Below the pieces are notes generated by a model. That model had not been told where the DNA came from. It saw only the letters and a program-made list of their open reading frames with translations, and searched no databases. 64,000 nt of DNA, taken from assembly GCA_973895155.1 (NCBI GenBank), contig OZ316898.1:5133079-5197078 (forward strand). The letters run 5' to 3'. Positions within the stretch are counted from its first letter, which is position 1; each line of letters begins with the position of its first letter. The stretch comes from Marsupella aquatica. Taxonomy: Eukaryota; Plantae; Marchantiophyta. Below are positions 1-43,259 of the stretch, one piece after another. A program made the translations under genes and the position numbers.

Positions 1-3000
1 CTGGACGAAGACGACGGCGGAAATGACCACGATGCAGTACCAACACGGGCCGAGGATAGCGACCGCTATCAACCGTTAACAGCTACAAGAAACCGAAATC
101 AAGTAGGGTTAGGGGAGTACCAATCATCTCCCAGAGTCGTGGCTTGTATAAGCGTGGCTCCCTACCCCGCAGCGGCAAAGACCACAGAAGGGGAAGAACT
201 ACCGACGCACACAGGACCGTCCTTGGCTCGCCCGGCCAGGCCAAGTACCACCTCTAACCACTATCGACAGCAGCGAAGGGACCGAACAAACAAACAAGTA
301 CGGACAGCAGCGATTAAGGGATGTACGCTAGCAGATTACGTGAATGAAGTAGTCCCATCAAGCGGACCGTTTAGTTCAGCGAAGACAAGCCAAATCAAAT
401 CAATTGTACTAGCAGCAGAAGATCTATTGGAAATATTTCAAGTTCATGATTGGAAATACAAACTAACGAAAGGACAGGAAGAAGAGCGGGAACGATTTCC
501 GTATAGGGTAGTGATCGTAGGGTGTACTCACGGAAAATCATCCACCTGGATTGTGGATCGGATACTGATAGGACCTAACTCAATACCGTGCATAGAGAAC
601 TACGCCATGGGAAAATTACATGTGCTTCTAAAAGCTTACGAGACGGGGGAGTCCGAGAATCAAATACCCCTATCAGCGAGGGAGTTGCTAAGACGGAAAC
701 CCTATTTGCGGTTGGCGCTGAAGCTACGAGCGACTGCAGAGTGGAGCGGCTATCAGTGAGCACTGAGGTTCGAGTGGACAAGAGTGGGGAGCAAATATTA
801 CACATTGCCTGTAGGAATGAAGGTAGTAACCCTCAAGAGAGCAGGCAAATTTGCCGACGAGTACCCCAGGAAACGCACGACGATGGCAGAACTGCTAGAA
901 ACGCCAGCCATGGAAGGAACGACGTCATACACAGAAGAAGAACATGCGGAAGGAATGGAAACAGAGGTGCAAGAAGTCCTCACGGACACGACTATTAACG
1001 ATCAAGGAGTCGTCGGGAAGCAGCCACCGATCACCGATAGTGTAGCAGGAGCGAAGACGGAAATGGGAGAGCAAGAACTCGAAATGGAGCCGGGGTCCGA
1101 GTGGTAGGATGTCGAAGCATAAAAGGAAGTGCCGATCAAGGTACCGGAAGCTCAGGTCGAGAGGTCGGAGGTGCTGTCGGTGGGGAACGAAGGACCGCAG
1201 GTAAAACGAAAATTTATGCTTGCAGATTGGCTGACCGAAACCGACCCAAAGGTGGAGATTGCGGCAGTCACAGCAGCCATACTTGAGGAATCGATGCCTC
1301 CCGACACGAAGAGAACTCGCCCGAACAAGGTGAAATTTATTAACGAGGAACGGCCCAAGAGGAGAGCGACCGATTCAGAGAAGAAGAAGGCCAAGATAAT
1401 TGAACCCAAGGAGGAAAAAGAAGAGAGTAGCTCAGCCAGCGAGGAAGAAGAGCTTGGCAACGAAATAGCAGTCCAGAAGAAGAAGTCAGTTGGATCGAGT
1501 AGAGCCCGTCCGAGGGAAGTTTTCCATGTGCTTAAATTCGAAAGGATGGAGCCCCATATCTTGAAGAACATGAGAGACCCAACTCACCGGAAGTTCTTAC
1601 GGTCGCAAGGATTAGAGGATTTCGTGAATTCGACGTGGAGTGTTCCAACTGAGCTACAAGCCGAGGACTACAGCAAATTCATCTCCATGTGGAGGCCCAC
1701 CGAGAACCAAGGGAGATGCAGGGGGCAAATCATCAAGACCGACCCTCGGACATTGCGTGAGTTATTCAATTTGCCAGAGCGAGGAGCGGAAATTAAGAAG
1801 CGGATGGGGAAGACCTAGCAGCCAGCCTCATTTCCACAGCACAAGGAGGTAGATGACACACGAGGCTATCAGACCAAACACTGCACTAATGAGAGAATCA
1901 AAGAAAGGTTAGAATTCGTTACCCATGCCCTGCATTGGAAACGACCTAGGTCAGAGTACCCACGATTCATGATAAAAATCGTGGAAGAAGGGAGTGGTAA
2001 GCAAAAGAACTGGTCAGCGTTTTTTTATGAGGGATTCCATTCGGCGATTAAGCGAGCTCAGCGATTCATAAGTAGCCAGAGCAATTTGCCGGTAGAAATC
2101 GAATCGCATTTTCAAGTTTTAATAGGAAGTCAACTAAAGGAAGGAGGTAGCAAGAGAGGAAGTCCAGCAGTAGCACGACCCAAGACCGCAGACAAGACAG
2201 AGAAGGTCGAACCGACCGAGAAGCGCAAGAGCGCAAGGCAGGACGACAATGCATACGAGGAAGATAATCAACTAGGAGACGATCGATCGCCAATGCGAGT
2301 AACGAGGAGTATGGTCACGGAGCAGCCACCAACGAAGGACCAGGAGGGACCAGCTGAAACCAGGAAGTACTCGACGGCAGCGATTGAAGACGAGGATCTT
2401 AATTACGCTTTATCAGCGATTAGAGAAAAAGAGGCACAACTAGTACTGCAGGAGGGAGGATTGGAAGGGCTACGAGCTGAGATCGAAATGGTACAAAAGA
2501 ATAGCATTTTCAACGTCATGGTGGGACAGATCGTCAGTCAGATGTCAATTTATCAGGGGATACAAAGTGCTCTATTACAGTTGCAGTGGGACAAGCAGGA
2601 AGAAGACATGGCAAGGAAGTTAGCCAAGCAGGAAGAAGACATGGCAAGGAAGTTAGCCCAGCAGGAAGAATCGACAAAATGGGCAGTAGAGGCCGAGGGG
2701 ACGATTAAGAAGTTACTCACCCAAAATGCAGAGTTGTTACAAGAAAACGATCGATTAGCGACTAGTGAACGAGGATGGAGGCACAAAGAAACAGCCATCA
2801 AAGACTTAGCCGAATTCCTAGGCATCAAGAAGATACAAGCGGGGGGGTTAACAAGCAACTATAGGGAAGTAATCGAGGCCATCCGAGCAGCGATTACCAC
2901 GGTAAAGATGGAGAAACGAAAAGCCAACCTACAGACAGAGCAGGGTATAGAGAAGCTAAAGGAGATCGAGAAGTTGAGACTCCAACTCAAAGAAGAAGCA

Positions 3001-3398
3001 GCACGGCAACAGAGCATAGCCAGCAAGTGGGAAGTCAAACGCCAACGTGTAGAAGAACTGAAGCATAAAATCAAGGATCTGGATACACAACTCAGCCAAG
3101 CCACCTTACAAGGGGATCCGACGACGGCTTCAAGAGAATCCACGCTGGAGACCGCAAGGTATAAGGAAGCAGCCGAAAGTAGGATCGGTCAATTAGAAGT
3201 ACAACTTGCAGACGCCTTGAAACAACGACCAGAGGGGAGCAAAGCGAACGGGGAGCTGGAACAGCTCAGGTCAGAGCATGACCAATTGTCGCAAGAATTG
3301 GAAGACAAGGAAAGATCTATTCTAGATCTCAGGTCGGAGGTGAGGAAGCTCAAGGCACAAGTCCGAACACAGATCACCCCAATTAAGAAACCAGGTGT
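1..3398 (+). pseudogene. Large retroelement accessory ORF (plant-transposon-type domain plus long coiled coil), over 1,130 codons with 3 in-frame stops; last codons displaced to 20460-20484 by the CACTA insertion
   Basis: ORFs 139-759, 784-1107, 1129-1818 and 1969-3435 share one frame that is open from base 1, with single stops at 757, 1105 and 1816. Removing the CACTA and one TGT restores ...KKPGVSGGNGVH*. Core motifs align by eye with the LTR-encoded ORF at 33749-36400. Confidence 0.75.
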
Positions 3399-3469
3399 CA
3401 CTAGTAGAAACCGGGGGGTATTTAGACCCCATTAAACGACTATTCAATACCGTATAGGACTTGGAAACG

Positions 3470-3780
3470 ACTGGGAAGGACTCTAGTCCTTTATAGGACT
3501 GCGAGTCGTATGTTTTGTTACTATAATCAACTGAGTCCTTTATAGAACTGGTTTATAAGTCGTTTAATAGACTGGATTTTCAGTCTATTTTAGTCTTTGT
3601 GTGGGTAGCTTTGGTGAGTCTTTTTCAGTCTTTTATGGGCTGCGATGGTGAGTCGTTGGGAACAACTCAAAAGGTTATGGAGGGTAGTCTTTAAATATAC
3701 TTTGTGGGTTTATAAAATGACTAAAGTAGACACTTTGTGGGGGTTTATAAAACGACTAAAGTAGACACTTTGTGGGGTAT
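3470..3780. repeat. CACTA subterminal short repeats (AGTCTTT/GACT motifs; GTAGACACTTTGTGGGG x2)
   Basis: Repeated motifs just inside the left TIR. Related TAGTCTT motifs occur at 20305-20350 near the right TIR. Confidence 0.55.
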
Positions 3781-4299
3781 GTACAAGTCTTTCATGTCAA
3801 CTGGAAATGAGTGATGAAGACCCCACTATACTACTTGGAATGAACTCACTCTTGTGCACAAATAACACATTTCATTCATGTTTTATTGTGTACTTGGAAT
3901 GAACTCACTCTATAAGGTCACCATTCACCATGTTAACATTAGAACCTCACACAAATTTTCAGAAAGCCATCTTCTATACCATGTACACTAATATGAATTC
4001 ACAGATTCAAACATCATAGACTACAAAGAAGGTCACAAAGCATTCGTCTATACCATACACACTAATACTGAATTGATACAAAACAGATTCAAGTATCATA
4101 GACAATCACCATAGAGCCATAGTTTGACATCAATCACTTGTTTCATACATACAGAATTCAGAAATATCAATGTCACACACAACGGCTCCTTCATCCTCTT
4201 TACCAAATGGAAAAATTGGTACAGATATTTCTTGGATTTTTCCAAGGCAATGTCAAAATGTAACACAATTCACATGATTCTATCTACACTTGTATTCAG

Positions 4300-7200
4300 T
4301 CACTGCAGACTAACACACTCTGATGGCCAGAGCACAAGAGATCCTACTGCATCTGCAATTATTTCTTGAGGTGGATCATCGTCTCTATTCGGAAATGGCA
4401 AATTACAATCAGATACAATCACTGTAGTCAACAACACTACTACATGGTCATCCGAGACCACTTTGCCATGGAATTTAGCATGATCCGGTCGCAAAATGCC
4501 TGTACCCACACATACCTGCGAGTCATTCTCCCATGATAGAAGATTATGGACTGGCTCTGCTGTGGCTATCACCTCCACCTTACCCTGGCTGTTTTTCTTG
4601 GCTTTCCTGGGTGGCTTATACATGACATTATTCATACCTTGGTTGCGAGTCATGACTTTGGCACGAGTGTTTTGTGCTGGTGATCGAGAATTGGCTACAC
4701 TCTTCTTCAAAGAATCTGCATCCATATTTGACACTTCCGATTGTGTAGCAGGATTTCCCTGCGACATCATCTCAGTATCTGCTAACATTGTACTTGCTTC
4801 AATTGAAGCATCTACAATCTTACTTGCATCCAATGTTGCTCCCAAGTTTCGACGTCGCTTCACCCTGCTCCCACTTGGTTGAGAGTCTGTCAACTCTGCA
4901 TCAACTACAATTCAATGCATTGTCCAACATAAGTGAATCACTCATCACATGTGCGCCATGTACATGTCACCATCCACAAAGTTGTCACTATCTCCTTACC
5001 ATTATGAACAGCCTTCTTCCCCTTCTTTGCCATTGCCATATCCTCCATGTCTGCTTCTGCTGATCAATAAACAGACCACAAGATTCAGGTTCAATCTATT
5101 AACCACTGAATTGTTTCTCAACAATGGTAGGAGAGGAATTTAAAGCATCAGCTTACCTGATACCTCCTTGGCTATGGTCACTGAGGCACTGGGCACATCT
5201 TTTTCATTGCTCTTTGAATCACCTGATACATCAATCATGATGTCACTTCAATTCCCAGTTTATCCAACCAATTCTTACAGAAAAGATTACCTCCAACCGG
5301 CTTAAGCTTCACAAAACTCCATGCACTTTTCAAATGTAATGTACTGGATCATAGCAGGTTACCTGTCTCAGCAACCTTTTTGCCATTCTGCTTACCGATT
5401 ACAGGGTCCAGGTTCTCTGCCTCCACTCTTCCTGCATTCAAACCATTCACTCAATTCATGAAAACTTACTTCTAACATTTGAACATAGGACACAATGAAC
5501 AATGGGCCTCTCTTGTTTCAAAATCCTCATTGCATACCTGTGTCAGATTTGCCAATTCCCTTTTTTGTTAACAAGGGCACACTTTGTACAATGTTGCCCT
5601 CATTGTTTGGTTGGGAACCACCCAATTTTTCAATCACAAGCTTGAAATTAGATTCCACTGATGCAAGAAGGTTCGCTACAGATGCCTCCACAATATCCAA
5701 ACGATCAGCCAATTTACTTTCCACTCGAGGGAGTCCACACTCTAATGACTTCAACCGTTCAGACATCTTTGTGAGAGTTGTAACAGTTCCCTGTCATAAC
5801 ACAGTTTACATATCTCAAATAATTGTCCCCAAGAACTGGTTGCTTACTTCCTACTACAATTCTTTCTGATGCTCAAGGCCAAATAGTCACAGAACATATA
5901 GAATTACAACATAATCACCTGTTTGGAAGTCACACTTGTCACCTCACTCCTTTGTTTCATGAACTCCTCTCTCACTTCTTGTGCTGATGGTTCTTCACCT
6001 GTCAATTTCTTCTGCAGTCCACATCAACATACATATGAATGAAACCAAGTGTTGATTGTCCATGAAAATGTAATAATGGTAGCAAGATGATAAGTTTGAG
6101 GCTTACTATTAGGCATGTCACTGCCTTACCAATTGTTCTTTCACTGGAGCATAACTTCCTCTCCCAGCCTGTGAAAGGTGTTTCACTTTGCCTCGAGCAT
6201 TTGACATCAGTTCACTCTTGCTCTGTCCAACCTCCGACATGAACCCTTTGATTAACCGTGTCCATTGATCCAGTTCCAATGATGGGGGTGGTGGCATTCT
6301 CCTGTTAGAACCATTGTCTATCCACATCCTTTTCAACCTATGCCTCTCTTGTTTCAAAATCCTCATTGCATAATCTGATATGCAATCTTCAACTGGGCCC
6401 TTACCATCATTACCAACATAGTCCCACCGTTCAAGAATGTCCTTGCAGATAGCAGCCCAATCAGCTTTGTTCTGACTCCTAAACTCTGTAATGCTCAAAT
6501 CTAACCAACGCAATACTTCTCCTCTTAGGTCAGAATGCCAACGGTTCTTACCATCACATGTGGGAGTTATCCAACCTTCGGAATTCACTTCTACTTTACC
6601 AAATTTGTTACTGTCTCCTGCCTTGGTACTCCCTGAAGCGCTACTAGGTGTCCCTCCACGGCCTGGTGTCCCCCCACGGCCTGGGGTCCCTCCACGGCCT
6701 AATCTCCCCCCACGGCCTGGATTGCATTGTCCAAACCTCCCTGGAGTCCCTGCACATTTACAGGATCCATTTACAGTCACTTACATTAGGTAAGTATGAA
6801 TCATAAATCCTGCTGCCAAATATACACTGGACTTCAGAGCAATTCTGCAATGACCAAGTTACCTCTCCCTTGGCGCATAGATGGTTCTGGACCACCTGTC
6901 CTATTGCTTTGTCTTGATGAATTAGGGCCGTTTCTCCCGCCTGTGAATGATTGCCGCCTATCTGAACGTGGATGGCCTTTGTTGTTTTCGTGATTGTCCC
7001 AATCAGAGTCTGCATACCAACAGGTACATGCCACACTCATGGACCTGTAAGATAAACTCTTTGCCCTAGCTACACATCAGATAAGTCCATATTGAGCTAA
7101 ATCTCTACTACCATCACAAAATCACTAGCACAAGGCACTTACTTGTCCAATCATCCTCCTCACCTGTCCATTGCCCTCTGTACCCGTCTCTACCACGCTC

Positions 7201-7660
7201 TGGGTGTTCATATTCATCCCATCCATCTTCTGCTCCATCATAGTCATCATCATAATTATCAGGCGTCCCTTGCCAATAACTCTGGCTCCTTCTAGGGTAT
7301 GGATTATGTGATTTCTCTCTAGCTGCCCACCTACCTGGGACTTGATGAGGGCCCTGTGCATCCTGCATAGGTGCATTTTTCTGTGAGCCCCCTGCATCTG
7401 GGTCTCCATCCATATCCAATCTTTCCTCTTCACCCCACTCTCCAAGCCCCATGTCTGTCTCCATGTCATCACCCTCTTCCCCCATAGCTTCTGCACAGCA
7501 CCCACAACCAAACAGGGAGAATCAGCACACTAAATTCAAAGTATCAATCAATTTCATGCATATCCAACTATCCTAAACATCATTCCAGGCAGCAATTCCC
7601 GTTCTGTGACTCTGTGCAGGTAGTCATCCTCAACCTCATACTTGCCAATCGCCAGCTGTT
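4300..7660 (-). CDS. Multi-exon CACTA TnpA-like protein (Ptta/En/Spm-type region plus C-terminal Tnp1/En/Spm-like domain); exon boundaries approximate
   Basis: Segment 6118-6780 (ERHRLKRMW...QWTRLI...SELMSNARGKVKHLSQAGRGSY) resembles Transposase_24. Segment 4300-4893 ends VGTGILRP...FHGKVV..DHVVVLL...LPFP...ADAVGSLVLWP, typical of the TnpA C-terminus. GT/AG signals lie between ORF pieces. Confidence 0.75.
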
Positions 7661-7662
7661 GC

Positions 7663-10600
7663 CTATTGCAAATCATCAACCTCATCATATTCCATTTGCC
7701 CAGGTTCATCATATGTCTCTCTCAATGTTAAGGGGATGTAGTCAGTCCCTGCCCGAGTTGGAAGTACAGTCTCATGACTAGGATGCTCGAATGCAGCATG
7801 GTCATCCAAACTGAACTCTACTTTACTTCCATCCATCCGCCTGTTCCGTGCTTGGCTATGGCATACCACCCTCCAGCCATGTGACTCCTCCACATCTGCA
7901 AAGAAAGCCTGTTCAACTTGGCTAGGGAAAACAAAAGGCTCAGACCATTCTGGTACTCTGGACCTAAAATTGGCCAACAAGAACCCATCATGATCACGCT
8001 TCATGGTGGCCCTTGGTCTCTGCCACTCTGATTTCACCCATGATCCCTTCATCAATATCACTGGGACACTTGTGTTACCATAATTCAACACCCAAATGTC
8101 GGTCAACTCCCCCACGTAACCCATCTTCATCCACCCCCTCTGTTCTTCAGAGGTTCTCTGCTCAAACACAGAAATCAAACCACAATCATATGATACACAA
8201 TGGTCACCCTGCTCATCCCTCACTCGATAATGATTTCCATAAGCTCTCATCCGTTTGTAGGTCAGAATAGACAATCGTGGTGGCACAGATAGAAGATACA
8301 AATCCTTCTCCATATCTGGGTGATGTCTACTATGCTCTCGAATTGTCACCCGAATCCACTGCTCGAACTGTGGGAAGGGATCCTGCTGCCCAGAGTGTGC
8401 AGCTTTTTGCATATCATATTCCCTGCAATATGAGGTACAGGCATAGTTAGGTCTAAACAACACATGACACCCTAAGATCACCCTTGGAACAGACAAGAAG
8501 CATCACAACAAAGGCAAGTCAATTCAATCACTCACCTCCACCATGGTTGCATAGGCTCTGTGTTTGCCAGCACATATGAATGAGCCTTGTCTCGAATTGC
8601 AACAGGCAGCTGAACAGCACGTCCCACACCTTCAACAACCTCGCCACTCACTCCATCATCTTCACCAGATTTCCAAACTCTTGTCATAGCTTCACCAGAC
8701 CCAGCCATGTACTCTGTTAGGAATCCCAACGTCTCATCCTTAATGTACCCCAATGCCATGGAAGCCTCTGGCCTGTAGTATGTTCTCACATGACCTTTCA
8801 ACAACTTCATGTATCGCTCCATAGGGTACATCCATCTGGTACTGACTGGCCCATACTGCCCTAGCTCTTCTACCACATGGATTAGGAGATGAGTCATAAC
8901 ATCAAAGAAAGCAGGGGGGAAGTATATCTCCAAGTCACAGAGGACATAAGCAGCATCCTGCTTCAACTGCTCCAATCCTTGGGGATCCCACACTTTCACA
9001 CATATACGGCGAAATACATTGCACAGTCGAAGAATGACATTACGGACTGGTTTCTGCATGAGACCTCTGAGGCATAGGGGCAGAATGTGCTGCATCAACA
9101 CATGGTAGTCATGTGTTTTCATACTGCCAAGTTTATTCTTTGTAATATGCTTCTTGAAGGCACCAGCATAGCCAGAGGGCACTTTCAGACAGCTCAATCT
9201 ATACAAGAATGTCTTCCATTCATCCTGTGTGCACACATAGGGAGCTTGGAACTTGAGAAGTACATTGGGATTGCTTGCATGGGGCTTCAACCAAAGGTGA
9301 GGGCGAATCCCCTTCTGTTGCATATTAGCTCGAACTGCTCCTGTATCTTTCTCACCCGACAAGAACTTCAGCAAGCTCTCACAAATATTTTTCTCAATGT
9401 GCATGACGTCCACATTGTGTTTGCTGGGCTCGAATTCCTGCACTCCACAAAGCAAAGAATTCAACAACAGAAACACTAATTAACCACATAGGAGGATTGT
9501 AACCAACATCAATCCACCATTGCTCCAATCTAAAATTGCAATCATACAGGGGCTGGAGGCTAAGTACATTACCCTCCAGTACTCCAACTCCAAGTCCATC
9601 AAGGTCTGTCTTTTCACACCGTGTTTCACCACTGGATCCTCAGGTTCTCGATCAGTGGCACTTCTCTTGTCCCAATCAGCCTTCCTGGCTGCCCACCTCA
9701 GGACTTGCTCTCTGGTGACCCTCTGTGGTGGGCCACGAAGCTTTGTTTTGTTGTTGAAGTGTGCAATTTGAGACCGTGTGTGCCTGTAAGGATGATCAAC
9801 AGGCAGATACCTTCTATGCCCCTGAAATTTCATACTGTGCAGGGCATGCGACCACTCACTTGTCACATTTTTCCCACATGGTGTGCACCCCACATAGCCC
9901 TTTGTCACTCGTCCAGATATGATGCCATGGCCTGGGTAATCTGCTATATCCAGCAAACAAATTGCATGCAGTCTAAAGGGGCTGGGTCGAAGAAGCCCCT
10001 TCAGAACATCATGGGTTAACACCCCTTCTATCCACAAAGTCTTCCACTCTTCCACTGCTGGAGCCAACATGATATCTATGAATTGCTCGGTCACAGAAGC
10101 TGGTCCAGGGATTAACAGCACCATCATGACAAAAAACCTCTTTGTAGTCATCCATGGGGGAAGGTTGTAATTTAGCAGCGTAACCGGCCAACATGAATAA
10201 CGGTTGTTTTTGTCTCCAAATGGGTTTACTCCATCCAGTGATAGACCAAATCGAAAGTTCCGCTTCTCTGCAGCAAACTGTGGCCACCTCTCATCAACAA
10301 ATTTCCAATGGTTGGAATCTCCAATGTGACGCTGCAGGCCATCACTGCTCTTGTTATCAGGAGTCCATGTCATCAGCTTGGAAATGGCAGGGCATCTAAA
10401 CAGACGTTGTAGTCTAGGAATGAGAGGAAAATGACGAAGAACCTTGGCAGGGTGTGTACATTTCCCTACATTCTTGTACCTGTGCTTACCACAATGAGGG
10501 CATGTCAATTTATCTGCATGCTCTTTGCGAAAGAGAACACACCCATCAGGGCATGCGTCAATAGACACATAGTTCAGCCCAAGGTTAGACATCAATTTCC

Positions 10601-11375
10601 TAGCCTCGTACATATTTTTTGGAATTGAATTACCATCTGGTAACACATTTCGGCGCAGGAAGGTCAACAACTCTGTCACAAATATATTGGGAACATTGTG
10701 ATTGCCACAGATGTTCAACAACAACACGACAAAACCCAGCTTGGAGCAGTTCGACCCCTCGTAGATAGGAATGCAAGCTTCTTTGATGTGTTTTGGGCCC
10801 CCAAACACCCACTCCCTCTCTGCTGCACCTTCCCCAATGTCAAAGTCAGGTTCAGCTTGGCCGTCGCCAATGTGTGGCTGCGGTTCATTGTCCTCTTCTG
10901 ATTCCACTATGTCGTAAAAAGCATCAAGGTCTTCAAAAATCTCTTGAACCATTCTTGGGACATCCATCCCACCGTCCTCAGTGACTGCCTCTGCATCTCC
11001 ATCTTGGTCATCCACGTTCTCATGTTGGACCCCAGGACCATCCTCTGCACAGTCTATGTCCTGCTCTACGTAGTCTCTACGCCTAGCTGTATTAGAATCC
11101 ACAAAGTCAGCTCTCCACTCTTCATCAGAGGAGTCTTCTTCTGCTGGTACATTCCAAACCCTCCACCGAGGGTGCCTTTCATGCCGCAGCAGGTGAAGGT
11201 GCACAGTGTTCAAACTCAATGACTTGAATCCTTGGCACTGTGTGCATGGGCATCTCATCCTCCTACTCCTACCTTGGGCGGCCCGGGCTTGTTCACGCAT
11301 CCACAATTTAGAATCATGATGCCTAATCCTAAATGGGTTGTGAAGAGGCAACCTTGGAGCCATCACTATACACAC
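7663..11375 (-). CDS. CACTA transposase TnpD/Tnp2 (Transposase_21 + DUF4218 + DUF4216), three exons
   Basis: Motifs CPCTQC, IDACPDGCVLFR, LRHFPLIPRLQRLF, LSLDGVNPF, DVMHIEKNICE, MKTHDYHVLMQ, FFDVMTHLLIH, WMYPMERYM and EPFVFPSQVEQAFF. Introns at about 9571-9439 and 8535-8424 (GTAATG..TGCAG, GTGAGT..TGCAG). No stops seen in exons. Confidence 0.95.
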
Positions 11376-11691
11376 GCACTCAGCACCCTGTCATTTTATT
11401 AATTGCAAGTGAAAAATACACTTCCTGTTAAGGATTTCACCCCCGACTGTACTTGCCAAAATACGTAACGTTCCAAAAAAACAAAAAAACAAAAAATATA
11501 GGTGCCTGAGTCATGTACCTATTCTCAAGTGAATGAGACAAAATTCCTAAATGTTTGAGGGTGTCAACTCCTCCGCTGTCCTCACATGTACTGCCTCTGC
11601 ATGTACATCCATGACCATATCAGAGTCCAATCATGTATAGTCATAGACACAGGTGCCAGGTGCGAGACCGGTGTGAGATGTCCTCATCTTA

Positions 11692-12261
11692 CTACCACAT
11701 CAAATACGGATACCAATCTTGTTGTCGATGCCACTCAGCCCTGAGGTACTCAGGCATGTACATTAAGTCATCAAGGTCTAAACCCTGCTCATGCCATGGT
11801 GGTCTTCGATCCGTGCCTACAAGCAGTGGCAGCAGTGCCCTCCATGGTGCACATGTTGCTACCAAGTCCCTCCACTGGGTACTAATTAGTCTATATTTGC
11901 AGATATCTTGTGCGCCAGACACCACAAGAACCCTCGGCCAGACATGTGTAAGAACTATATCATCTGCCAAATCAGGCAACAAGGAACCACCTACAGCATC
12001 GTGCTTGTCTAACTCATCTGCTGAAAAGTAAATGTCCTCTTCCGACTGTGCATCCTCATTCACCACAGCATTCACAACACATCCAAGGTCTGCAGGCATT
12101 ATCTCGGATGGAGCTACACTCTGTCTGGTTACCAATCCACACAAGTAAGCCCAAGCAGTAGCCATGCACGATGCAACCCGTAGGAGGACCCTACACAGGG
12201 CCTGACGGTCTGGAAGAGGCAGCATACCCACCAAAGTCTTCAGCCAAACAGAGCCCAGCAA
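11692..12261 (-). CDS. F-box-like protein (CACTA cargo)
   Basis: LLPDLADDIVLTHVWPRV...ICKYRLISTQWRDLV follows the F-box pattern LP.LP.D....I...L......R.V...W..L. The start codon is uncertain. Confidence 0.6.
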   Translation of the reverse strand: MLGSVWLKTLVGMLPLPDRQALCRVLLRVASCMATAWAYLCGLVTRQSVAPSEIMPADLGCVVNAVVNEDAQSEEDIYFSADELDKHDAVGGSLLPDLADDIVLTHVWPRVLVVSGAQDICKYRLISTQWRDLVATCAPWRALLPLLVGTDRRPPWHEQGLDLDDLMYMPEYLRAEWHRQQDWYPYLMW

Positions 12262-12401
12262 GTAGATTCACAGTCACACCCCACGCAGCAGGAAACAACA
12301 ATCACTTCAACTGCGACCAACCATGACAAGATGAGTTAGTTCAAGGATCACATTTATTACAAAATTGTGATTTATACAAAAATATGAGGGACTCCTACTC
12401 C

Positions 12402-13265
12402 TCACTCTCTCCCACCTTTGCTAAGCATACATCTCCGCTGAATCTTGGAGGGCCAGGCCTCAAAAATATCAAAGTCCCAAGCATTCTGTCGCTTCCCTCT
12501 AGCTGCTGATTCCAGAAGCCAATCAGGGGAAAGCACCCAAAGATTGTTGTTCATGACAAAATCACGCACTGTTGTCTTAAAGAATTTTCTGCATATTTTC
12601 ATGTATGACAGACCTACAACATGAGTGGAGGTTTCTGTTAGACTCTCCTCCACTGTCCCACCTAGCTCAACAACTATAGACTTGTACAGTCTGCACTTAG
12701 TCTCCCCAATTCCTTCTTCTGCAAATACCACACTGAACCCCTTCATAATGGTATTTCTCTCCTTGCCATGCTCATTCAATATAGCATCTGCACGCATAGG
12801 ATGGTGTCCTATGTTGACAACAGGTCCATATTGGACAGAAGCAAAGTTGGGTTTCTCTGCCGCTGCTTCATAGGCTTCCTTTTCAGCCAAAGCCTCTGTA
12901 GTGGCCTCCTCACTCTCCCACAACTCATATTGCTCAGTACTCTGTACACACCTATGTTTAACAGAATCGGTCAGCCAAGAGACTTCAACTACTTTTAGAC
13001 CTTGGTTGGTAATGGCAGAATCAATGAAGGACCATGACCACTTGTTCATCACATCCAGCCATGTCCCCGCAACAACATGTGTAGTCTGTGGAGTGATGTC
13101 CTTGACTTCAGTCCCATGGAACTCTGAGAATCGTTTTTGTACGATTGGCCAACTCACTTGGGTGAACCCATAGTGGCCAGGAATCAAAATGGCTTTGATT
13201 CCAGCCAACAGAGGCGGGTGGTCAACATTTGTACGTTTCCTAGAGGCCATGTACACACGGGCCAC
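12402..13265 (-). CDS. Tandem BRCT-domain protein, resembling the plant DNA polymerase lambda N-terminal BRCT (CACTA cargo)
   Basis: Two repeats: G....DITPQTTHVV...VVEVSWLTDS and LGGTVEESLTETSTHVV...VLSPDWLLES, which carry the BRCT GG, THVV and W..D/ES hallmarks. Basic N-terminus MASRKR. Confidence 0.85.
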   Translation of the reverse strand: MARVYMASRKRTNVDHPPLLAGIKAILIPGHYGFTQVSWPIVQKRFSEFHGTEVKDITPQTTHVVAGTWLDVMNKWSWSFIDSAITNQGLKVVEVSWLTDSVKHRCVQSTEQYELWESEEATTEALAEKEAYEAAAEKPNFASVQYGPVVNIGHHPMRADAILNEHGKERNTIMKGFSVVFAEEGIGETKCRLYKSIVVELGGTVEESLTETSTHVVGLSYMKICRKFFKTTVRDFVMNNNLWVLSPDWLLESAARGKRQNAWDFDIFEAWPSKIQRRCMLSKGGRE

Positions 13266-13850
13266 CTAATCACTGCAGACCGGAAGATAATGCGTTCACC
13301 TGATAATCGGAGGGCCCTTAAAATGCTGCGTTTATAACTTGGTCCAGTCCAGTCGTCTGGTGAGTCTCTGCTCCGATTCCAAACGGGAGAAATATTGGGA
13401 CAAACGTACTAGACACCTGCAAGCATGCACTTCATAGTTTGAATATGTGCCTTCACAATATTGAAGGTGACAAGTGCAATTGTTTTGTGATGCCACATAC
13501 AGATGTTTCGTATGGGGGCAGACATTCAATGAGAATACAAAATGTTGGTACACTTTAAGGGAATTCTCGCAAATTAAATAGCCTTGTAACTTATATGCTC
13601 ATAATGAGAAGTCCTGATTTAATTTAAGCAGTGTCATGTAAGTCGTGATCAAAATGATTGCAGAGTTAAAAAAGTTCCTAGAAGGCTTAAGGGGAGATTT
13701 TGAAGGCATGTACCCAGGAACAAGTAATGAACTTAGGGTACTTGTTGCCTAAGCATCCTCTCCTACAGAGGTCCTTCTTCTCAAAATTGGAATGTCTGCA
13801 ATCTCCAAGGTATCCACATCAGGTGCACTATGCATGTACATTATTCAGGT

Positions 13851-14531
13851 TCAAAGCCAAGAAATGTGATCTCTCATGGGAGTGTGCAAAGTAGGATCTA
13901 TGGCATGGCGATGACAATAGAAGATCCATCGATCAACACCATGTGCAGAGTGATCATAGATGTGTCTGTCACAAGCATAGCCTTCTGCTTGACGCTCCTT
14001 CAAACAATGAAAGTGCCACATGGTGGGACACCTAACACAGTGGACTATGTCCACCCAGAAATCTTCATCGTGCTGACCACATGCCTTGCACTTATGAAGT
14101 GGGCAAGTTGTGGCAAGATCGGGCAAACATGAAAAACAAAAGAACCTCACACAATATCTGTCAGGGCATTTCCTAACAAGTGGTGGAGCATCAACAGAGC
14201 CCTCATAAGACCCCAACTTCCCACACTGTGCACACTTAGCCTGCTTCTCCAAACAATCAGTGCACATCCAGCCTCCTTGGTGTGCTGACGGGAGGCCCAC
14301 CCCTGGACAGTTGTTTTCTGCAGCAAGGTCAGACTCCGGGTTGAGGTGGAAATGCCTCATGCAAGGGCCCTCACATATGGCTAAGTCACCACCATCGTCA
14401 CAAATGGCACAACAATGAGCTGCCTTCTGGAAAATCTGACTTGCGGAGAAGTTACTACCATCTGGCCCAACTACACCTGTGTTGCTCACCTCTGTCCCCC
14501 GCTTCTTGGCTCGGATTTTAGGGCGTGCCAT
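13851..14531 (-). CDS. EDM2-like composite PHD-finger protein (CACTA cargo), intronless, 226 aa
   Basis: CAICDDGGDLAICEGPCMRHFH...CGKLGS...TCPLHKCKAC...CVRCPTMWHFHCL...IFYCHRHAIDPTLHTPMRDHI parallels the Arabidopsis EDM2 PHD region as I recall it (CAICDNGG..CEG.CLRSFH...LGS...TCPLHKC..C...CRRCPKSYH..CL...IYC..H.ID..L.TP.RDH). Basic NLS-like N-terminus. Confidence 0.88.
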   Translation of the reverse strand: MARPKIRAKKRGTEVSNTGVVGPDGSNFSASQIFQKAAHCCAICDDGGDLAICEGPCMRHFHLNPESDLAAENNCPGVGLPSAHQGGWMCTDCLEKQAKCAQCGKLGSYEGSVDAPPLVRKCPDRYCVRFFCFSCLPDLATTCPLHKCKACGQHDEDFWVDIVHCVRCPTMWHFHCLKERQAEGYACDRHIYDHSAHGVDRWIFYCHRHAIDPTLHTPMRDHISWL

Positions 14532-15200
14532 GCCTACGCATGAGACAGATAGTACAATTTAGCAGAGTGCACAGACAATACAATTTAGTGCAGTGTACAA
14601 AAAGTACAGTGTAGCATATAGACTAGAGTGGCAATTGCTACTGCAATGAAATGTTCACACACATGTGCAGAGTAGACATACTTTTTGGTTTGTTGAGCCC
14701 ACACTAAAAACTGATCCCCTCGTACAATAGCTCCACCTACACCTCAATTTTGTGGCTATGATTCACCAAAGGAGATCTGCAACAAGATTTAATGCATTTG
14801 AATCACATATAACAGTCGTGACATGTAAAACAGGCATTTTTTGAACAGGATTGGTATCAAGCAGTGTGATCAGGGTTGTAATTTATACATCCTAAATAGG
14901 CTATGATAGTGAATGAGACAAATAAGTTAGGCATAAATCACTTTTTCCAGGTTATCACATGGCCCATTAATTCCAGTCTTTGAAAGGAGACTTTTAAGTG
15001 AGCTTGCTAGCCTCTTAAATTAGGATATTGTACTTAGTGCAGCCATAATAGGATAAGTTATGTACTGTTGACCCTAAACCCTGGACCCAAAATTGGTCAT
15101 AATTCAAAATCTTAAGTAAATATCCTCTCTGTTCAAGTCAAAGTGTTAAGTTATAGGTCAATGGTCTCTGGTTTGTGCATGCGGTGTGACAAGTGGTCCT

Positions 15201-15650
15201 CTAGAGCGTGTGATCCAAACATGTGTAGACACCAAAGTGACCGGTGGTGGGGTCTGGGAGGGCAGGACAAGTGACATTGCCAGGCACACTGCAGGATGGC
15301 GAGTGGTTCCAGATGATACATTGTGCTCTGTGAAAAAACCGACATCCAAGAGAACGGTCATCCAACTCTAGGCCAGAAGCCCTACAGGCAGGACAGTCAT
15401 ATTGGCAACTGTGCACACACCCTTGGGCCCTAATTTGTGGCGGGTCATGTACAAGAGACAGAAATACCAAGGATGTTGGGAAGGGTGGAGAAGCAGGTAC
15501 AGGCCGACTGTAGTTGTTCCTGGCAACAACTGGGTACTCAAAGTACCATGCAGACTGGGCTGGAAGGATCCCAAGTCTGACATACTCAAGGCGCAACATC
15601 TCTGCCTTGCGTGCAAGCCGCACATGTTCAGCGTTGCGGGTCCTCACCAT
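15201..15650 (-). CDS. Cys/His-rich hypothetical protein (possible fourth CACTA cargo gene)
   Basis: 149-aa ATG-initiated ORF on the same strand as the other cargo genes, with CxxxCxxxCxxC and further Cys/His. No family recognised. Confidence 0.35.
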   Translation of the reverse strand: MVRTRNAEHVRLARKAEMLRLEYVRLGILPAQSAWYFEYPVVARNNYSRPVPASPPFPTSLVFLSLVHDPPQIRAQGCVHSCQYDCPACRASGLELDDRSLGCRFFHRAQCIIWNHSPSCSVPGNVTCPALPDPTTGHFGVYTCLDHTL

Positions 15651-18600
15651 AAGTGTTGCTTTTGTGGAGATGTCGTGTGTTCACGTCCTCTGATAAGCAC
15701 CTTCGATCAGCAAGGTGAGCAGGAGCTGTACTTGCCTCACCAACAGCAACCAACCTTAAATTATCAGTTCCCACTCACTGTGTCATTCCATTGGTTCCAG
15801 CTAGGGGTCACAGTGTAAACATAGCATGAAACACTCCTAATCAACTTGCTTACAAACTACAATATCCAGAAAGAGTGAAAGTCTCACCCTCCAGTGAGCA
15901 GCAGAGAGGTAGTTCACTAGATGTGTTGATGTGCAGTTAAACCTCCACTATTGCTTACTTCTGGTGTATGCTGCTCAGAAGAAGACATATTAGTAGCAGC
16001 AAATTGCAAATAATGGCCATAAGCAAACCGTGAGAGTTTGCAGAATGCTACGACAAATCCATCACAGCAGTGCTCCACAGGAATGAAACCAAGCAAAATT
16101 TGGTGACCTCGGCCAATGACAAGGCCAATGTAGTGAACAATCCTTGACCGATCAGGATATGGATTGGAATTACAATTAGTCAGCTCTTCTTCTTTGTTTT
16201 CTAACTCTGGGGGAAATGAGCATGACCAGGGAATTCTCTGAGAAATAGAAGTGCACAGGGAAAATGAAATTGGCTCATTCAGCTCTGCAAGATGGACCAT
16301 TGCAGCATACTTGGACAGTTGTTCCGCAATACATAAAATACCCTGACTTACATGCAATTGATACAATCTGCTTCTGTTGGCTGTCCTACAGCTCATGGCA
16401 GTGCCGTTGGGACAGGGTAAGTGAATATTGCCATAGCTGAAGCACATTGAGCTTGCAGCAACAAGTGAAGGAGCATGGCCAAAAGCAGAAAAGACAGACA
16501 GGTTTTACAAGAAGAAACTAACAACCGCCAATCTGCTCAAATCCGCTGCATAGATCAAACCCTCCGAACTACACAGCCCTCCTTTGAAAACAATCCAATG
16601 TGCTTTGGCTGGTGGATGACAAGGACTGGGAGAAGAGGAAACGTCTGCACAATCAATCCAAATGACGGTACATAGAGACCAGGCACAGAGAGGATTTGTG
16701 CTTAGACAAAAACCACAAATTGTAGCATGGGCGCCATAGCATTCTAGACAAAGCACAAAACATAGAATCTATGAATCTATGACTCATGGACTAACAAAAT
16801 GATTGGGTAGCATGGCAAAAGGAAAGACAAATTTCAAAATGACAACATGGCCCGTTTCCACCATTCATTTGACGTTGCTAGGTGTCCGTAAGATGACTGA
16901 CCCACAAACAATCCCGACAACCTCATCCGACAGACTGCTTTTCTAGTGTGAAGAAATACATGATTACAAGCAACACCACGCCTCATCCAAGCAGGGAATT
17001 GAAAACATAACCATGTCATTCCTATATTGGACAGTGTCCTCTGCCATTGCACTGCATAGTTGTTATTCCATGTTGGTTGTCAACAGTTTGTTGGCTTGCC
17101 ACAACCTAGATAGAACAATAAAATATTGTACATGAATACAACAAGAAAAATCTGCATACAGCGATGGCCCGGTCACTTGAGGAAAAAACAAAACTAAGAA
17201 GGCAGGCACACGGGCAACCGAGAAAAAAAGCTAGTGGCGCCTCGCGGAGAATCCAGAATGGTAATGCCCTCGCCCAGAAGCTTGGGAAACAAAAGAGAAA
17301 AAAGCAAAAACGAGCTACCGACCACCGTCTTGACCAGGCCTGCCACAAGGTATGGCTGGAGGCTGTGGTCCCCCCCTCAGTAAAGAAAAGGATGCAGGTT
17401 GGAGCACGGGGCACAAGGCATGTTTGGATCCAGGAGGAGCAAAACAGTAATGTCAAGCAGGAAGTGTGGAGAGACCAATCAGTAAACAAAAATAGGGGAG
17501 AACAAACATACATCAGCAGCAACAGGAAACGAGAAAGTTGATTTAGGAGGGATTGTAGGGAGAGAGCTTTTGGTGGGCTCGGCTGTGCGTGAAATATCGG
17601 GAGATAGATGCGCGAGAGAGTGAGGAGGGTGGCAAGCGGAAGACGGGTTGGGACTGGACCCTTGGTGCCGGTGGGTAATATATGGGGTTTCAGCAGACTT
17701 GGGGCCAGTTTGAGGAGGATTGAGAAGCGCGCACCCCACGTTCTTGGGTGGTGGTTGGGTGGGGTTTTGTTTGATTGAAGAAGAAATCACCATTCTCTTC
17801 TAGAAGAAAGAAAATCACAGGAAATAGTGGACGGGAGAACAAGGCATGTAATAGAGAACAACAAGGCATGTAATAGAGACAGTGCGCAGCTCAGCTCCGA
17901 GGTCACACTTTACGATGCACAGGGGGTCCTTGGTTGCACGTAGGAGAAGGACTGAATCACTGTGGCTGCTCTTCTCTACTATCGAAGCACCCGGCTGGCA
18001 GCTCCGCAAACACTGATCGTAGCTACAATCTCTACACCGTTGATTGAAGAGCAGCTGCAGCACAGTAAGGAGCTCCCACAGCCTCCCTCTTCAAAGCTCG
18101 GTTGACCTAGCTCTACGATCGACGGAGCATGGGCGCCAGACAAAGCACAAACTGTACCATGGAGCTGGAGAAAAACACAGAGTAATTGAAGCCTAACAAT
18201 ACCCTTCTCAGCTCCTGATTGAATGAGGAAAAACACATTACAAGACACATTGCAGGCAATAGGATTTTAACAATGAAGTCTCGCCTGTGCTGACAGAATA
18301 CCTGCTTACAGCCACGCGTTGCTCATCCTCCCACAGTTCGGTGGCACACTATCCAGATGGCATGACGCATGCCTTAACTTATGACGATTTGCGCAGCTCA
18401 AATCAAGTAGGTTGTCCCCACAAAAAGACAGAGGACAACAAAGAAAAGCAATGTAGCCGTGATGTCTTACCAGCCCTGACAATGGGAGCTTCAAAGGCGG
18501 TGCACTATGGCTGAAATGGCAGCACGCTGCTCGAACACTAAAGCAACACAAAACTTGGACTCTCACCTTATGCAACTCCTGGCTTGTATTCAGCTGGCGT

Positions 18601-18969
18601 TGGCCCACTCTAAGCTCCTGCGCCGCTCCGACTGCTAGTCGTTCTGTAGACGGTCTGTATCCTCCCTGACTGCAGCTCCTCCCCGCCCCCAGCTCGTCAC
18701 CCGCGTCTTCTCCCCAATTTGTGGTGAGCTCCTCCTCGACCACAGCACCCTAAACTGCTTTGCCCAGCCTCTGATGGCCTTCACGTTGTTACCGATTGTC
18801 GCTCCCCACAAAGTCCACAATCCATAAACCAGGCAGATAGTGCGCCCGTAGAACAGATGCAACCCGCATGCAGCTTCACCAGCTCAATGGCAGCTCAACA
18901 GCTTAAGGGTGCAGCAAAAGGGCGTTGAATAGGTTGTCTCACCTCACCCTTCGAGAGCCGGTCATTGCA

Positions 18970-20250
18970 GCATCCCTAAACTCCCGATCCCTCTTCTCGG
19001 ATTCCACAGAGCCGACCACAAGAAAATGGGAACACTAAACCTCACTGTAGAGACGTTCCCACCAAGATTACACGGAAAACCTTGCTCCGATCCCTAAGCT
19101 CCCAATCCCATCGAGAGAACACGATAAAACCTTGCTCCAATCCCTAAACTCCCGATCCCACCAAGAGAACACAATAAACCTTGCTCCGCAAGTTGGGAAT
19201 GTGGCGGGATCCCTAAACACATCAACAACCTGCTAAGTGTAAGCAAAGTTGCATAACCGGCTTGTTCCCTTCCAACGGTCGCGCGACTCGGGTGTCCAAA
19301 CGGTACTGCAAGCGGTACAGGCCCCTAGCTTGGGATACCCTTACCAAAGTCACTGGTGTTGCCGACATGGTAACGGCAAGATTATCCTGACCCTCCATAA
19401 ACCCCCTCCATTCACTCAAGTGTTGTGAGTGACAACTTAGTGTAGTGTCGCTAAACAAATACTTTGGCCTTAGCAAATATCTGTGGTGATCGAACTTCAT
19501 TAAACCAAACCTCTTTTGGTCACAAATAAGGCCATTTAATGAGTGATGCCCCTTGTCATCACCCTCTTAATTTATGCAATTACCCTTCCTGAACACAATT
19601 GAACATTGTCCAAATTGCCTACCCTCATGAATAATTTGTCAATTATCTTTCCCGACATATATGATGTCAATGGACATGATGGGGAACATGATGTCAATGG
19701 ACATGATGCCAACGATCCAATGGTTCCTAAACCCCCATCCCCTTAACATGCAACCCCCGACCCTTGACATCAAACCCCCCTAAACCCCCTTTAGTGAAAA
19801 CCCAGCCACCCCCTAGCCTTGACATATAAACCCCCTAAACGTCTTCACAACTCGACTGTGGCCAGACTATCTTTGCAATGCCAAGGGCCATTTTTAGAGT
19901 GCATGCCGCTTGCAAGCTCAGGCTCTCAAGATCCTCCCAAGGCAGCAAACAAGTTAGGGTCCCTAAACATGTTCCTTTACCCTAAACCATTGCGTCACTA
20001 TTTCAATCGAGTGTTCTTTTCCTGGACAACCCCCTAACCCTAAACCCACACCCCCTTGAGACCGGTACAAATCTACCTTTGTGCATCTTGGCCTTTTATT
20101 GATGGAGTTAGTAATCGATCCCTCCGTAGTCCACCCTCCATGAACCTCACTCCAAAACCTTTTTTGTCACAAATAAGGCCATTTATTGAGTTATGCCCCT
20201 TGCTATCTCCCTCTTTACAGAATTACCCCTCCTCAACATAAGTGAACATT
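18970..20250. repeat. Internal repeats in the CACTA right arm: about 52-bp AAACCTTGCTCC..TCCCTAA units (19075-19190) and a diverged ~130-bp duplication (about 19490-19610 vs 20140-20250)
   Basis: Direct sequence comparison; TCACAAATAAGGCCATTT occurs twice. Confidence 0.7.
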
Positions 20251-21741
20251 ACCCATGATGTGCTAGACTATTCACCGTTCACAAAGTAGCAAGGTTACTT
20301 CTCATAGTCTTTTAGTGAACCATAAAACACTAATAGTCTTTTGTAGTCTTCAACAAAACTGGTGCAATGGGTGCGAGTCGTTTCAAGTATGGAAAAAGGA
20401 CTTAGTGGGCTTAGTCCTATAAGGTATGGTCTAAATTGCCCCGGTTTCTACTAGTGTGTTAGCGGGGGCAATGGAGTCCATTAACTCGATGTTAAACGCC
20501 CAGTTTGACTTGCGATTAACGGACGTCTAACTGCCTTCTTCGCAGTATCTCCCGCTTAAACGATCAACCGACCTTCTAGCGGGGTACTCCCCTCTTCCTC
20601 TATATAGTCCCCGTAAGTGAATCCTACCAAGTGCTCTATAATGTCTAACTCTTTCTTCCACCTCTTGGGCACGACTGCTTCAGTCAACACCAGACCCTCC
20701 CTGTAGATGATCTCGATAAACCCACACCAGTAGCGGTAAGTAATTAAACAGATGGGAATACTCTCCTGGCGTAACGCTCGGGTAATCAGGTGGGAACCGA
20801 TGGAACAGATCCACAATTCCAGTGGTCTTAACTTAATCAAGGAGCAAGGCTTGTCCACCTTACTGTCTACATTCATGGTTGTTATAGTAGCAGTGACCGG
20901 GTTAGGTCCTGCTATCCCTCAATCGGCCTTCCTGGCAATCGATCTGTCTTTGGCTAAATCAAGCAATTTAAATAGAGGTATCCGTAGTAGGACCCCCAAT
21001 TTAACGGTTGACCCTGTATGTTGAAGGTGTACGACGACCAAGGTCACGTCCTGGATACACACAATCTCCAACCAGACCTTGCTTCCCACGAGCTGTCTGT
21101 TAAATCGCTACCTTAACGTGCTAAACCGTAAGGTCCTCACTCGTAGTGAGACGATTTCCATTCATCCCAGCGATTTATGATTAATCGACTTAACACATGT
21201 TCCTAACGAGTACTTTGCGCAAACTCCCATAACCGCACTCCTCGACTCTCAGTATTAATCATGAATGCCTCTCCTTCTTCGAATGACTTTCAAAGTTACT
21301 GCTTCTTCTGACTTGATTCACAACATTCTTCCAACGTTGACTCTGGACTCTTACTCACCGCTCAAGCACAAGGTAACGAAGTTCCTCTGCACTCTATTGC
21401 ATTCATACACATCTCTTTATAATCAAAAACTACTCAAAACAAGTAGGGACACTAATACAAAACGCTGGTAATCTTGAGGTGAGTCCGGCTCTACCTCTCA
21501 ACCAAGCTCCTAGCAAAAAGTGACAAAGCGCCTAGCGCTCCACAGCCTCTAAATACCTATGCCTTGCGTCCGTCTTTGCTGAGGTTTCTAACTACTTTCT
21601 GGGGTGCGCCGACTTCAGTTGGATGGTTCGCCCTTCAGCCGCGGTCTCCTGCGCTAATCTGCCAAGAAACTCTAACTGTCTCTTGCCAAGAACGATGAGC
21701 GAGCCAAGAACCGTGTTTACATGTCAAGAAGATTCCCGTGG

Positions 21742-22350
21742 TTACTGAACTGTGCAACGACGCCTTTGATTCTCTTCTTTGATGGCGCCTGAACTGGAAG
21801 CTTCCGGACTTTTGATCGCCAATTTTGCTAAGTGTGAAACGACATTTAGGTTATCGTTCCCTTCCTTAGCGGTAGTCGCTTTGTTGGCGATGATTACTTG
21901 ACCGGCGGTGATTAATCGCCATGCAATCTGTTGATCGCGGTTGTTATCCCGCCTTAGTACCAGATTCCACTTCTTTCGCATGACATTTCTGCAGAATTCC
22001 TCAATGGCCCCGCTGGTCGTGAATCGCTGACGAAACTCTTTGCCCTTCATTCCAAACAATTGTTGCCCGGCCTCATCCCAGACACGACAGCTCCCTTCTT
22101 TCACCCGAATGGTGAACATAAACATAAGCACTCCTTCGCCTAGCGGTTTACACCTATGCCCTACTCGATTTCGGCTAATAGGGGTTCCCATGTCGGTCCC
22201 CTCTTGTCTTTTCTGTCGAGCCCTTGTGCCTAAGGCACAGACCTTGCCATCTGCTAGAAAGCCATCGCAACCTTCATAACAGAACTCTACTCCTATCCGG
22301 CCACTAATCGCGATGATCTACGCCTCTCCTAATTCTAGCCTTTCCGCCAT
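21742..22350 (-). pseudogene. RPA70 C-terminal-like zinc OB-fold ORF, one in-frame stop
   Basis: Extending ORF 21742-22191 upstream gives MAERLELGEA*IIAISGRIGVEFCYEGCDG...KVC...HRC...LMFMFTIRV...VWDEAGQQLFGMKGKEF, which matches the Rep_fac-A_C pattern (FxYxxC...C...YxLxxxI...FxExAxxLFG). Confidence 0.65.
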
Positions 22351-22479
22351 TCTAACAGGATGCAATGAACTGCTACCGGTCCTTGCATGCTGCTCCCTAA
22401 ATACCCTGGATTAACTTATGGCTGACGCTTCTAAGACTAAAGGACTATGATTTAACTGGTATAATGTTACCGTTTACAT

Positions 22480-22690
22480 ACCGCCTCTTGTCGGGCCGCC
22501 TCTTGTCGGACGCCTCCTCTCTGGCCTCCTCCTGTCGGGCCGCCTCCTTCTTTTGAAGCTCCTCTTGCCGGGCCGCCTCCTGCCGGGACGCCTCCTCTCT
22601 AGCTGCCTCCTGCCGGGCCGCCTCCTGCCAGACCACCTCCTGCCGGGCCACCTCCAGCCGGGCCTCCTCCTGCCGGGCCTCCTCCTTGAG
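22480..22690 (-). repeat. 15-bp tandem repeat (GCCTCCTGCCGGGCC-like), reads QEAAR or GGGPA
   Basis: About 13 degenerate 15-bp units starting where gag similarity stops. Confidence 0.85.
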
Positions 22691-23117
22691 TAACCCGATC
22701 TGGATCTTCAAGCTGAAATTCTTCTTTCATCTTCAACTCAAAGACCTTCCATGCTTTCTCCCCAGTAGCTCCATCTATCAAGGTAGTAACAATTCCCTTG
22801 AGTTCAGGTTCTACTAAAGATACAAACTCCTTGACTGCAACTTCTGCATCAATCTTATGAATTGTAGCCTCCGTCCAGTACCCCTTGAGATACTTGGTTA
22901 CATTTCGCCCATCAAATTCTCCTTGCTTGGTAAAAACCGAGTGTAGGTACTTCGTGGTCCTACCAAGCAACTCCTTCTTCTTGTTCTCCTCCATCTCTTT
23001 CTCCTTCATTCCATGTAAGTAAGCAGCAATCAAGGATGAAAACCTCTCCATGTCAGTTGGATTCATCTCAGTTCCCATGATTGCAATTCTTCCCTCTTGA
23101 CTTAATAATATAAACAA
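22690..23117 (-). pseudogene. Truncated gag N-terminus
   Basis: GEFDGRNVTKYL...F.SLVEPEL...W..FE..MKEEFQLED.DRVT resembles gag N-termini of gypsy elements from non-seed plants. It lies directly downstream of the PBS. Confidence 0.7.
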
Positions 23118-23201
23118 GTTAAGAACTCAAAGTTCCAAAACCATATCTCTCTCCATCCATTAGAACTCAAACATGCACAAGCTAACTTCCAAATTCAGCG
23201 G

Positions 23202-23220: not shown

Positions 23221-23224
23221 CTTA

Positions 23225-37296: not shown

Positions 37297-37309
37297 TAGC
37301 CTTTGTTTT

Positions 37310-43250: not shown

Positions 43251-43259
43251 GGTGGCCCG

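Follow-up and report, generated by a model that had tools for sequence, protein, structure and literature searches.

Decayed copies of an old LTR-retrotransposon accessory gene with a predicted VANC21-like core fold

Results

Accessory genes in a nest of plant transposons

The analyzed window, the whole stretch of 64,000 nucleotides, is a nest of plant transposons in which accessory open reading frames (ORFs) occur in three retroelements, here designated A, B, and C. ORF A can be followed on the plus strand from 910 up to 3398 and comprises a charged low-complexity head, a core of about 200 amino acids (1531-2124, +) with a predicted VANC21-like fold, and a predicted coiled-coil tail. It is interrupted by stops at 1105, 1120, and 1816, the last of which (1816-1818) lies in frame within the core, and its 5' limit at 910 is not necessarily the true start. 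A CACTA DNA transposon of 17 kb (3399-20456, -) sits in the last codons of ORF A and is flanked by a 3-bp target duplication, TGT. This transposon, whose minus strand encodes Transposase_21, DUF4218, and DUF4216 (Pfam), is not part of the family described here and parts A from the remainder of A's element. Contigs from two of four runs join position 3394 to 20456, at a joint whose shorter side comprises only 23 letters and with which the target duplication agrees.

Beyond the CACTA transposon, the internal region of A's element (20460-23225, -) has continuous contig cover and contains a primer-binding site (~23220-23203, -) and a gag-like fragment (~23100-22450, -), which was recognized as gag-like by eye and has no Pfam match. 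The adjoining LTR (23225-24290, -) has an approximate outer edge; its inner edge at 23225 is marked by a rise in depth of about 4- to 20-fold at 23214-23347 and by 20 diverse loose ends of low agreement. This LTR probably includes a candidate array of binding motifs, in which a 19-bp unit is repeated in tandem about 12 times (24039-24266). The element reaches beyond the window, its far end lying outside, and since no pol follows the gag-like fragment within the window, it may be non-autonomous. The joint between 3394 and 20456, the minus-strand gag-like fragment, the primer-binding site, and the LTR edge together support the view, put forward in the preliminary description of this locus, that A is internal and antisense to its element. 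Two other arrangements were considered. A location of A inside a plus-strand LTR ending near 3786 was rejected, as the CACTA transposon starts at 3399 and the contigs join A to 20456. For an insertion nested near 22480, between A and gag, there is no corresponding joint among the junctions listed.

The layout of A's element is odd in that gag without pol is accompanied by several extra ORFs: there are at least three more ORF-like stretches, of which 22317-21742 (-) and ~21170-20560 (-) run in sense within the element and the third is located at 1-759 (+). The stretch at 22317-21742 appears OB-fold-like by eye, and neither it nor 1-759 has a Pfam match. The high-copy CACTA transposon also encodes a BRCT domain (12402-13265, E 6.5e-14) and, in an ORF at 13851-14558, NSD-like PHD fingers that score below the cut-off; these are possibly chromatin-reading cargo.

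Element B is a full Ty3/gypsy element by its domain order, the start of its reverse transcriptase (RT) being placed by eye. Its 5' LTR (33282-37296, +; 4015 bp) has TG...CA ends and a target duplication, CTGAG, and its internal region (37297-45181, +) carries a primer-binding site at 37310, gag with a zinc knuckle, protease, an interrupted RT, RNase H, integrase, and a purine tract; Pfam returned no chromodomain match in the element. The 3' LTR (45182-52783, +) is interrupted by element C. The accessory ORF lies in sense and wholly within the LTR: in the 5' LTR it starts with an ATG at 33749, terminates at 36400, is broken by one frameshift and several further stops, and contains the core of copy B1 (34667-35251, +; in-frame stop at 34790-34792). 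A fourth copy of the family in the window, B2, is found within the 3' LTR (core 46555-47139, +; stop at 46933-46935), so that ORF copies in both LTRs of a Ty3/gypsy element establish the LTR position that had been claimed for B. The LTR pair differs by a K2P distance of 0.036, and B1 and B2 differ in 4 synonymous and 9 non-synonymous codons, a post-insertion decay that is uninformative on selection.

Several further features surround element B. At ~41075-43255, its RT is disrupted by a 2.2-kb insert with CACTA-like ends, and part of the RT appears to be missing there; over 140 bp, the insert matches the large CACTA transposon (17402-17541) in inverted orientation. The primer-binding site begins 13 bases past the LTR end (37297-37309 lying between), compared with 0-5 bases in the rule given in the available part of PMC6317226. 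The element is itself inserted in a transposase-like gene (31036-33281) consisting of a 608-aa ORF and a following exon, with a DDE-type motif recognized by eye and no Pfam match; this gene probably resumes at 53186-54067. Upstream of it are tandem arrays at 24394-25301, 26455-26631, and 30239-30546, with units of 189 bp (4.8 copies, 98% alike) and 154 bp.

Element C (47885-51483) is a probable solo LTR of 3.6 kb, inserted in the tail of ORF B2 and devoid of gag and pol. ORF C spans about 48754-50464, with an internal stop (49907-49909), and its core (48880-49480, +) is broken by a frameshift near 49100-49124. We infer from the TG...CA ends and the 5-bp target-site duplication ACCGC that C, as previously proposed, lies in an LTR. 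All four window copies (A, B1, B2, and C) are thus broken by stops, frameshifts, or insertions. As A is internal and antisense and its nearer relative B is in an LTR and in sense, the gene must have changed position once or more; the earlier wording, 'repeatedly relocated', goes too far.

One old family with many relatives

The motifs quoted for A, B, and C in the preliminary description are present in the window where it had placed them, and A (1531-2124, +) and B (34667-35251, +) align with 26% identity over 197 columns (E 7e-23), with a score of 196 that none of 1000 shuffles reached (shuffle maximum 58). Copy C is weak against the window copies alone (window-wide E 0.2-0.4): its halves score 8.2 and 9.2 bits on the A/B profile, scores for which no equal or better one was reported among 2000 shuffles. 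It is joined to the others through relatives. A profile of five window pieces, searched against 1.84 billion representatives, collected 229 relatives at E 0.001 or better; by nearest window copy, the best 150 of these comprise 13 A-like, 35 B-like, and 102 C-like sequences. One-sided profiles were built from 38 A/B-type and 98 C-type rows over 120 aa, with the window sequences excluded. The C-type profile finds A with 50.5 bits and B1/B2 with 30-32 bits, and the A/B-type profile finds the second half of C at E 1e-6 in the window but not the first half (0.3 bits). At E <0.001, calculated for a million sequences, the A/B profile recovers 61 of the 98 C-type rows and the C profile 22 of the 38 A/B-type rows. 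The relatives were gathered with a joint profile, which favors bridging sequences; the cross-scores are still far above chance. A comparison of the two groups by hhalign gave a probability of 99.0% (E 2.5e-18). The profile alignment on which the claim of one old family common to three elements had been made to depend is consequently significant, and on these sequence comparisons we have next to no doubt that A, B, and C belong to one family.

A tree of 55 rows, which included 27 C-type rows (25 random and the two nearest to C) and left out window C, separates the C-type from the A/B-type with a support of 100/100. Core residues are conserved across three deep groups, with W, F, G, C, F, and W positions retained in 79-99% of 131 rows; R74, R101, K134, and R148 (numbered by the A domain) are basic residues that are likewise conserved. 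At the DNA level, local alignment scores among A, B, and C are only 17-18, and the conservation of protein positions where DNA no longer aligns indicates long selection on the protein. Long uninterrupted relatives exist, such as P0151 (906 aa) and P0001 (744 aa). Among 20 relatives looked up, the four with a named source belong to the liverwort Calypogeia fissa, and another relative comes from the moss Physcomitrium patens; these named relatives suggest that the family is probably one of bryophyte LTR retrotransposons. Two word-indexed protein searches, which count as weak evidence, found nothing: one with A as query among 183 candidates, the other, for longer proteins and with alignment A2, among 5232 candidates.

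Protein anatomy and links to Pfam families

The anatomy described earlier for the three proteins holds in part. A basic patch closes the region before the domain in all three, yet the region as such is equally acidic in A, where 60 aa hold 15 K/R and 14 D/E. A crude heptad scan predicts coiled-coil segments 3' of the core in A, B, and C, of which that in C is short; 32 of 46 long relatives have such a heptad tail, compared with 11 of 46 shuffled tails. The absence of a transmembrane segment is upheld: the top 19-residue hydropathy is at most 1.43 in the window copies, and none of the 46 long relatives reaches 1.8. At the N terminus, the B-type proteins carry an additional domain of about 125 aa (33749-34150 and 45649-46050), which is without a Pfam match and also occurs in P0151, P0004, and P0064.

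The family does not reach any Pfam cut-off. A scan of 114 of the best 150 of the 229 relatives returned three matches to PF20167 (Transposase_32) at E 1.6e-7 to 3e-4, all below the cut-off of 45 bits (best relatives 21-32 bits), and the matching subgroup includes the Physcomitrium protein. Of the window copies, C matches PF20167 with 11.6 bits (E 0.25), and A and B have no match. A profile of the PF20167-matching relatives, in turn, finds B with 35 bits and A with 30 bits and does not find C; by hhalign this subgroup is related to the A/B type with 98.4% and to the C type with 95.0% probability. None of the 114 relatives matches PF10536, PF03078, or PF04195 at E 0.01 or better, and PF09331 (DUF1985) is likewise matched by none of them at E 0.01 and by no window copy at E 10. 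The profile comparison proposed for these families hence came out positive for PF20167, remotely and below the cut-off, and negative for PF10536, PF03078, and PF04195. ESM Atlas leads point to PMD and DUF1985 clusters with a score of only 0.84, and one Atlas row for PF03078, at 0.89, involves the bridge protein P0136. The suggested relation to Transposase_32/PMD-type domains therefore stands as remote profile homology to PF20167, and as a link to the PMD-type group by way of the predicted VANC21-like structure, but not as a match to PF10536.

Predicted fold of the core

We modeled the core of A with AlphaFold2 from an alignment of 104 rows (pLDDT 92.6, pTM 0.88). The top Foldseek match of this model in the PDB is the VANC21-DNA structure (E 0.024, probability 0.93, TM 0.45), followed by a match at E 1.2. 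In a wide search of 48,161 chains, the same entry was found with Z 7.7 and an rmsd of 4.3 over 204 of 220 residues, the next match having Z 2.9. A second AlphaFold2 model, that of the C-type relative P0021, was built from 79 C-type rows only (pLDDT 84.3). It again matched VANC21-DNA best among the 48,161 chains (Z 7.4, rmsd 3.9, 196 residues), and the remaining rows among the matches listed align the tail helix only. VANC21 is the sole match at Z >=5 in both wide searches, so that the structural comparison suggested at the outset leads, for predicted A-type and C-type models alike, to the VANC21-DNA crystal structure. Other searches returned less: VANC21 is absent among the Foldseek matches listed for the P0021 model, neither model has a Foldseek match in the PDB at E 0.001, viral models yielded nothing at E 0.001, and a PDB sequence search gave coiled-coil matches only. 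Identity to VANC21 is 7-12%, and Z scores of 7.4-7.7 are middling, best values of 7-8 being common for unrelated best matches according to the tool. We nevertheless give weight to the match: it extends across almost the entire domain, is the only one of its strength, and was obtained again with the second model; from these predicted models, a fold relationship between the core and the DNA-binding domain of VANC21 is very probable.

Discussion

A possible role in counteracting silencing

An interpretation to which we assign about even chances is that the window holds broken copies of an old LTR-retrotransposon accessory gene for a nuclear, DNA-binding regulator that would shield its own element from silencing. 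The basic patch would bring the protein to the nucleus, the coiled-coil tail would oligomerize it, and the core would bind motifs in the LTR or non-coding DNA of its own element; binding would then lower repressive marks and allow the element's promoter to work. Location within the LTR would moreover let solo LTRs retain the whole gene and act in trans. Precedents come from VANC and PMD biology. VANC21 binds a 9-base motif that is dense in tandem repeats of non-coding DNA, and it brings about a loss of methylation (PMC5735166). MAIL1, MAIN, and MAIL2 are described in the accessible parts of bioRxiv 2024.09.27.615353 and PMC13547354 as counteracting Polycomb silencing via promoter motifs, with a PMD that resembles the VANC domain, and PMD-A clades are reported to be Gypsy-encoded (PMC5418596, PMC13547354, and bioRxiv 2024.09.27.615353, each as far as available). 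PMD proteins were, on the other hand, first described as promoting silencing (PMC5418596, available part), and since the same fold group includes such members, the fold does not give the function.

The window itself offers mixed indications. A motif array is present in one of the three elements, namely the 19-bp array of A's element; in the LTRs of B and C, a k-mer scan of the non-coding parts revealed no enrichment of any 7- or 8-mer. The observed/expected ratio of CpG is 0.80-0.97 in B's LTR and within the internal regions of A and B, as against 0.27-0.37 in neighboring DNA transposons, which lends weak support. CpG is depleted in the LTRs of C (0.44) and of A's element (0.54), and age and coding constraint likewise influence CpG content. 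The differences between the B LTRs affect 72 of 540 CG, 31 of 437 CHG, and 17 of 1266 CHH sites, and their concentration at CG and CHG implies that the host methylates such copies and that this copy of B was methylated after insertion.

It is possible, though we regard it with some doubt, that the family and fold are as described and the role is another one: integration-site tethering, RNA export, nucleic-acid chaperoning, or transcriptional regulation without an effect on silencing marks. The fold and nuclear-type anatomy suit any nucleic-acid-binding role, such roles have been proposed for antisense extra ORFs (PMC7264820), and the LTRs of B and C are without motif arrays; yet the members of the fold group with functional data in the cited papers, VANC and MAIL1/MAIN, both act on silencing marks according to the text available. 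An improbable reading is that of a real Transposase_32-related accessory protein whose match to VANC21 reflects a similar helical arrangement and says nothing on ancestry or DNA binding. Z below 8, identity of about 10%, and a Foldseek E of 0.024 for one model, with the other unlisted, would fit such a coincidence. Against it stand two models, one of them purely C-type, that both select one and the same entry among 48,161 chains and align about 200 residues with it, the next globular match having Z 2.9, as well as the Atlas leads towards PMD and DUF1985 clusters. Finally, that the ORFs are env-like membrane proteins or functionless host gene fragments carried along is very hard to credit: plant retrotransposon extra ORFs are often called env-like (PMC7264820) and every window copy is broken, but the lack of a hydrophobic segment in the window copies and 46 long relatives leads us to reject an env-like function, a reading that the sequences appear largely to refute, and the core is conserved in three deep groups and uninterrupted in P0151 and P0001.

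Returning to a silencing-counteracting regulator, we put forward a broader proposal only tentatively: the family could be a retrotransposon-borne anti-silencing factor of bryophytes, LTR-placed or antisense, and its fold the early land-plant source of Transposase_32/Athila ORF1, PMD (MAIL1, MAIN), and VANC. A VANC-like fold gives a widespread accessory gene a testable function, and its presence in probably bryophyte retrotransposons would date the fold group back to early land plants. If the protein acts like VANC, it would be a retrotransposon-encoded anti-silencing factor, and the family would also supply natural DNA-binding variants.

Comparison with known systems

PMC7264820 describes the extra ORFs of plant LTR retrotransposons as being of unknown function. 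Such ORFs are common in non-chromovirus Ty3/gypsy elements, with PMD, Transposase_28, and Athila ORF1 as the principal named domains, and Phygy, a moss clade, is described as short and nearly all polyprotein (both PMC6317226, available part). Gypsy-encoded PMDs and the likeness of PMD and VANC are already in print, as far as the available texts go. In the literature searched, outside which lie most subscription papers and all supplements, neither this family nor a VANC-like fold in a bryophyte retrotransposon protein was found to be described, nor was a link between Transposase_32 and VANC or a retrotransposon-encoded anti-silencing factor; domain tables belonging to PMC6317226 and structure clusters belonging to PMC13547354, both beyond that scope, may bear on novelty.

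Like the Retand/Grande antisense 3' extra ORFs (Transposase_28, PF04195), for which nuclear regulatory roles have been proposed (PMC7264820), A is internal and antisense; unlike these, the family has no PF04195 match, and B and C are located in LTRs. To Transposase_32 (PF20167)/Athila ORF1 (PF03078) it is tied by the subgroup that matches PF20167 below the cut-off and is linked with 98% to the A/B type, and for Athila, an extra ORF that combines this domain with a predicted nuclear signal has been reported (PMC11728184, available part). It differs in its position inside LTRs and in that A and B have no match to PF20167 and C reaches only E 0.25.

With PMD (PF10536; Gypsy PMD-A, common in Ogre; host MAIL1, MAIN, and MAIL2), the family shares its occurrence as an extra ORF in Ty3/gypsy elements and probably, by transitivity via the PMD-VANC shared structure reported in the texts available, the fold group. 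In contrast to PMD, which was surveyed as an angiosperm family and whose origin from a retrotransposon or a host gene is called 'fully open' in the accessible part of PMC5418596, it has no PF10536 match in 114 relatives. Like VANC21 (DUF1985, PF09331; VANDAL Mutator-like; PDB 9LNJ, 9LNK), it is a transposon-encoded accessory protein, its predicted core fold aligns with VANC21 over about 200 residues, and a coiled-coil helix is predicted for VANC21 too (PMC13547354, available part). It is, however, encoded by LTR retrotransposons and not by VANDAL/MuDR DNA transposons, is probably bryophyte whereas the same text describes VANC as dicot-specific, and has 7-12% identity, no PF09331 match, and a DNA binding that is putative. 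By their sequence definitions, the family is outside VANC, PMD, and Transposase_32; the predicted models indicate that it is probably a divergent bryophyte branch of the fold group that unites all three.
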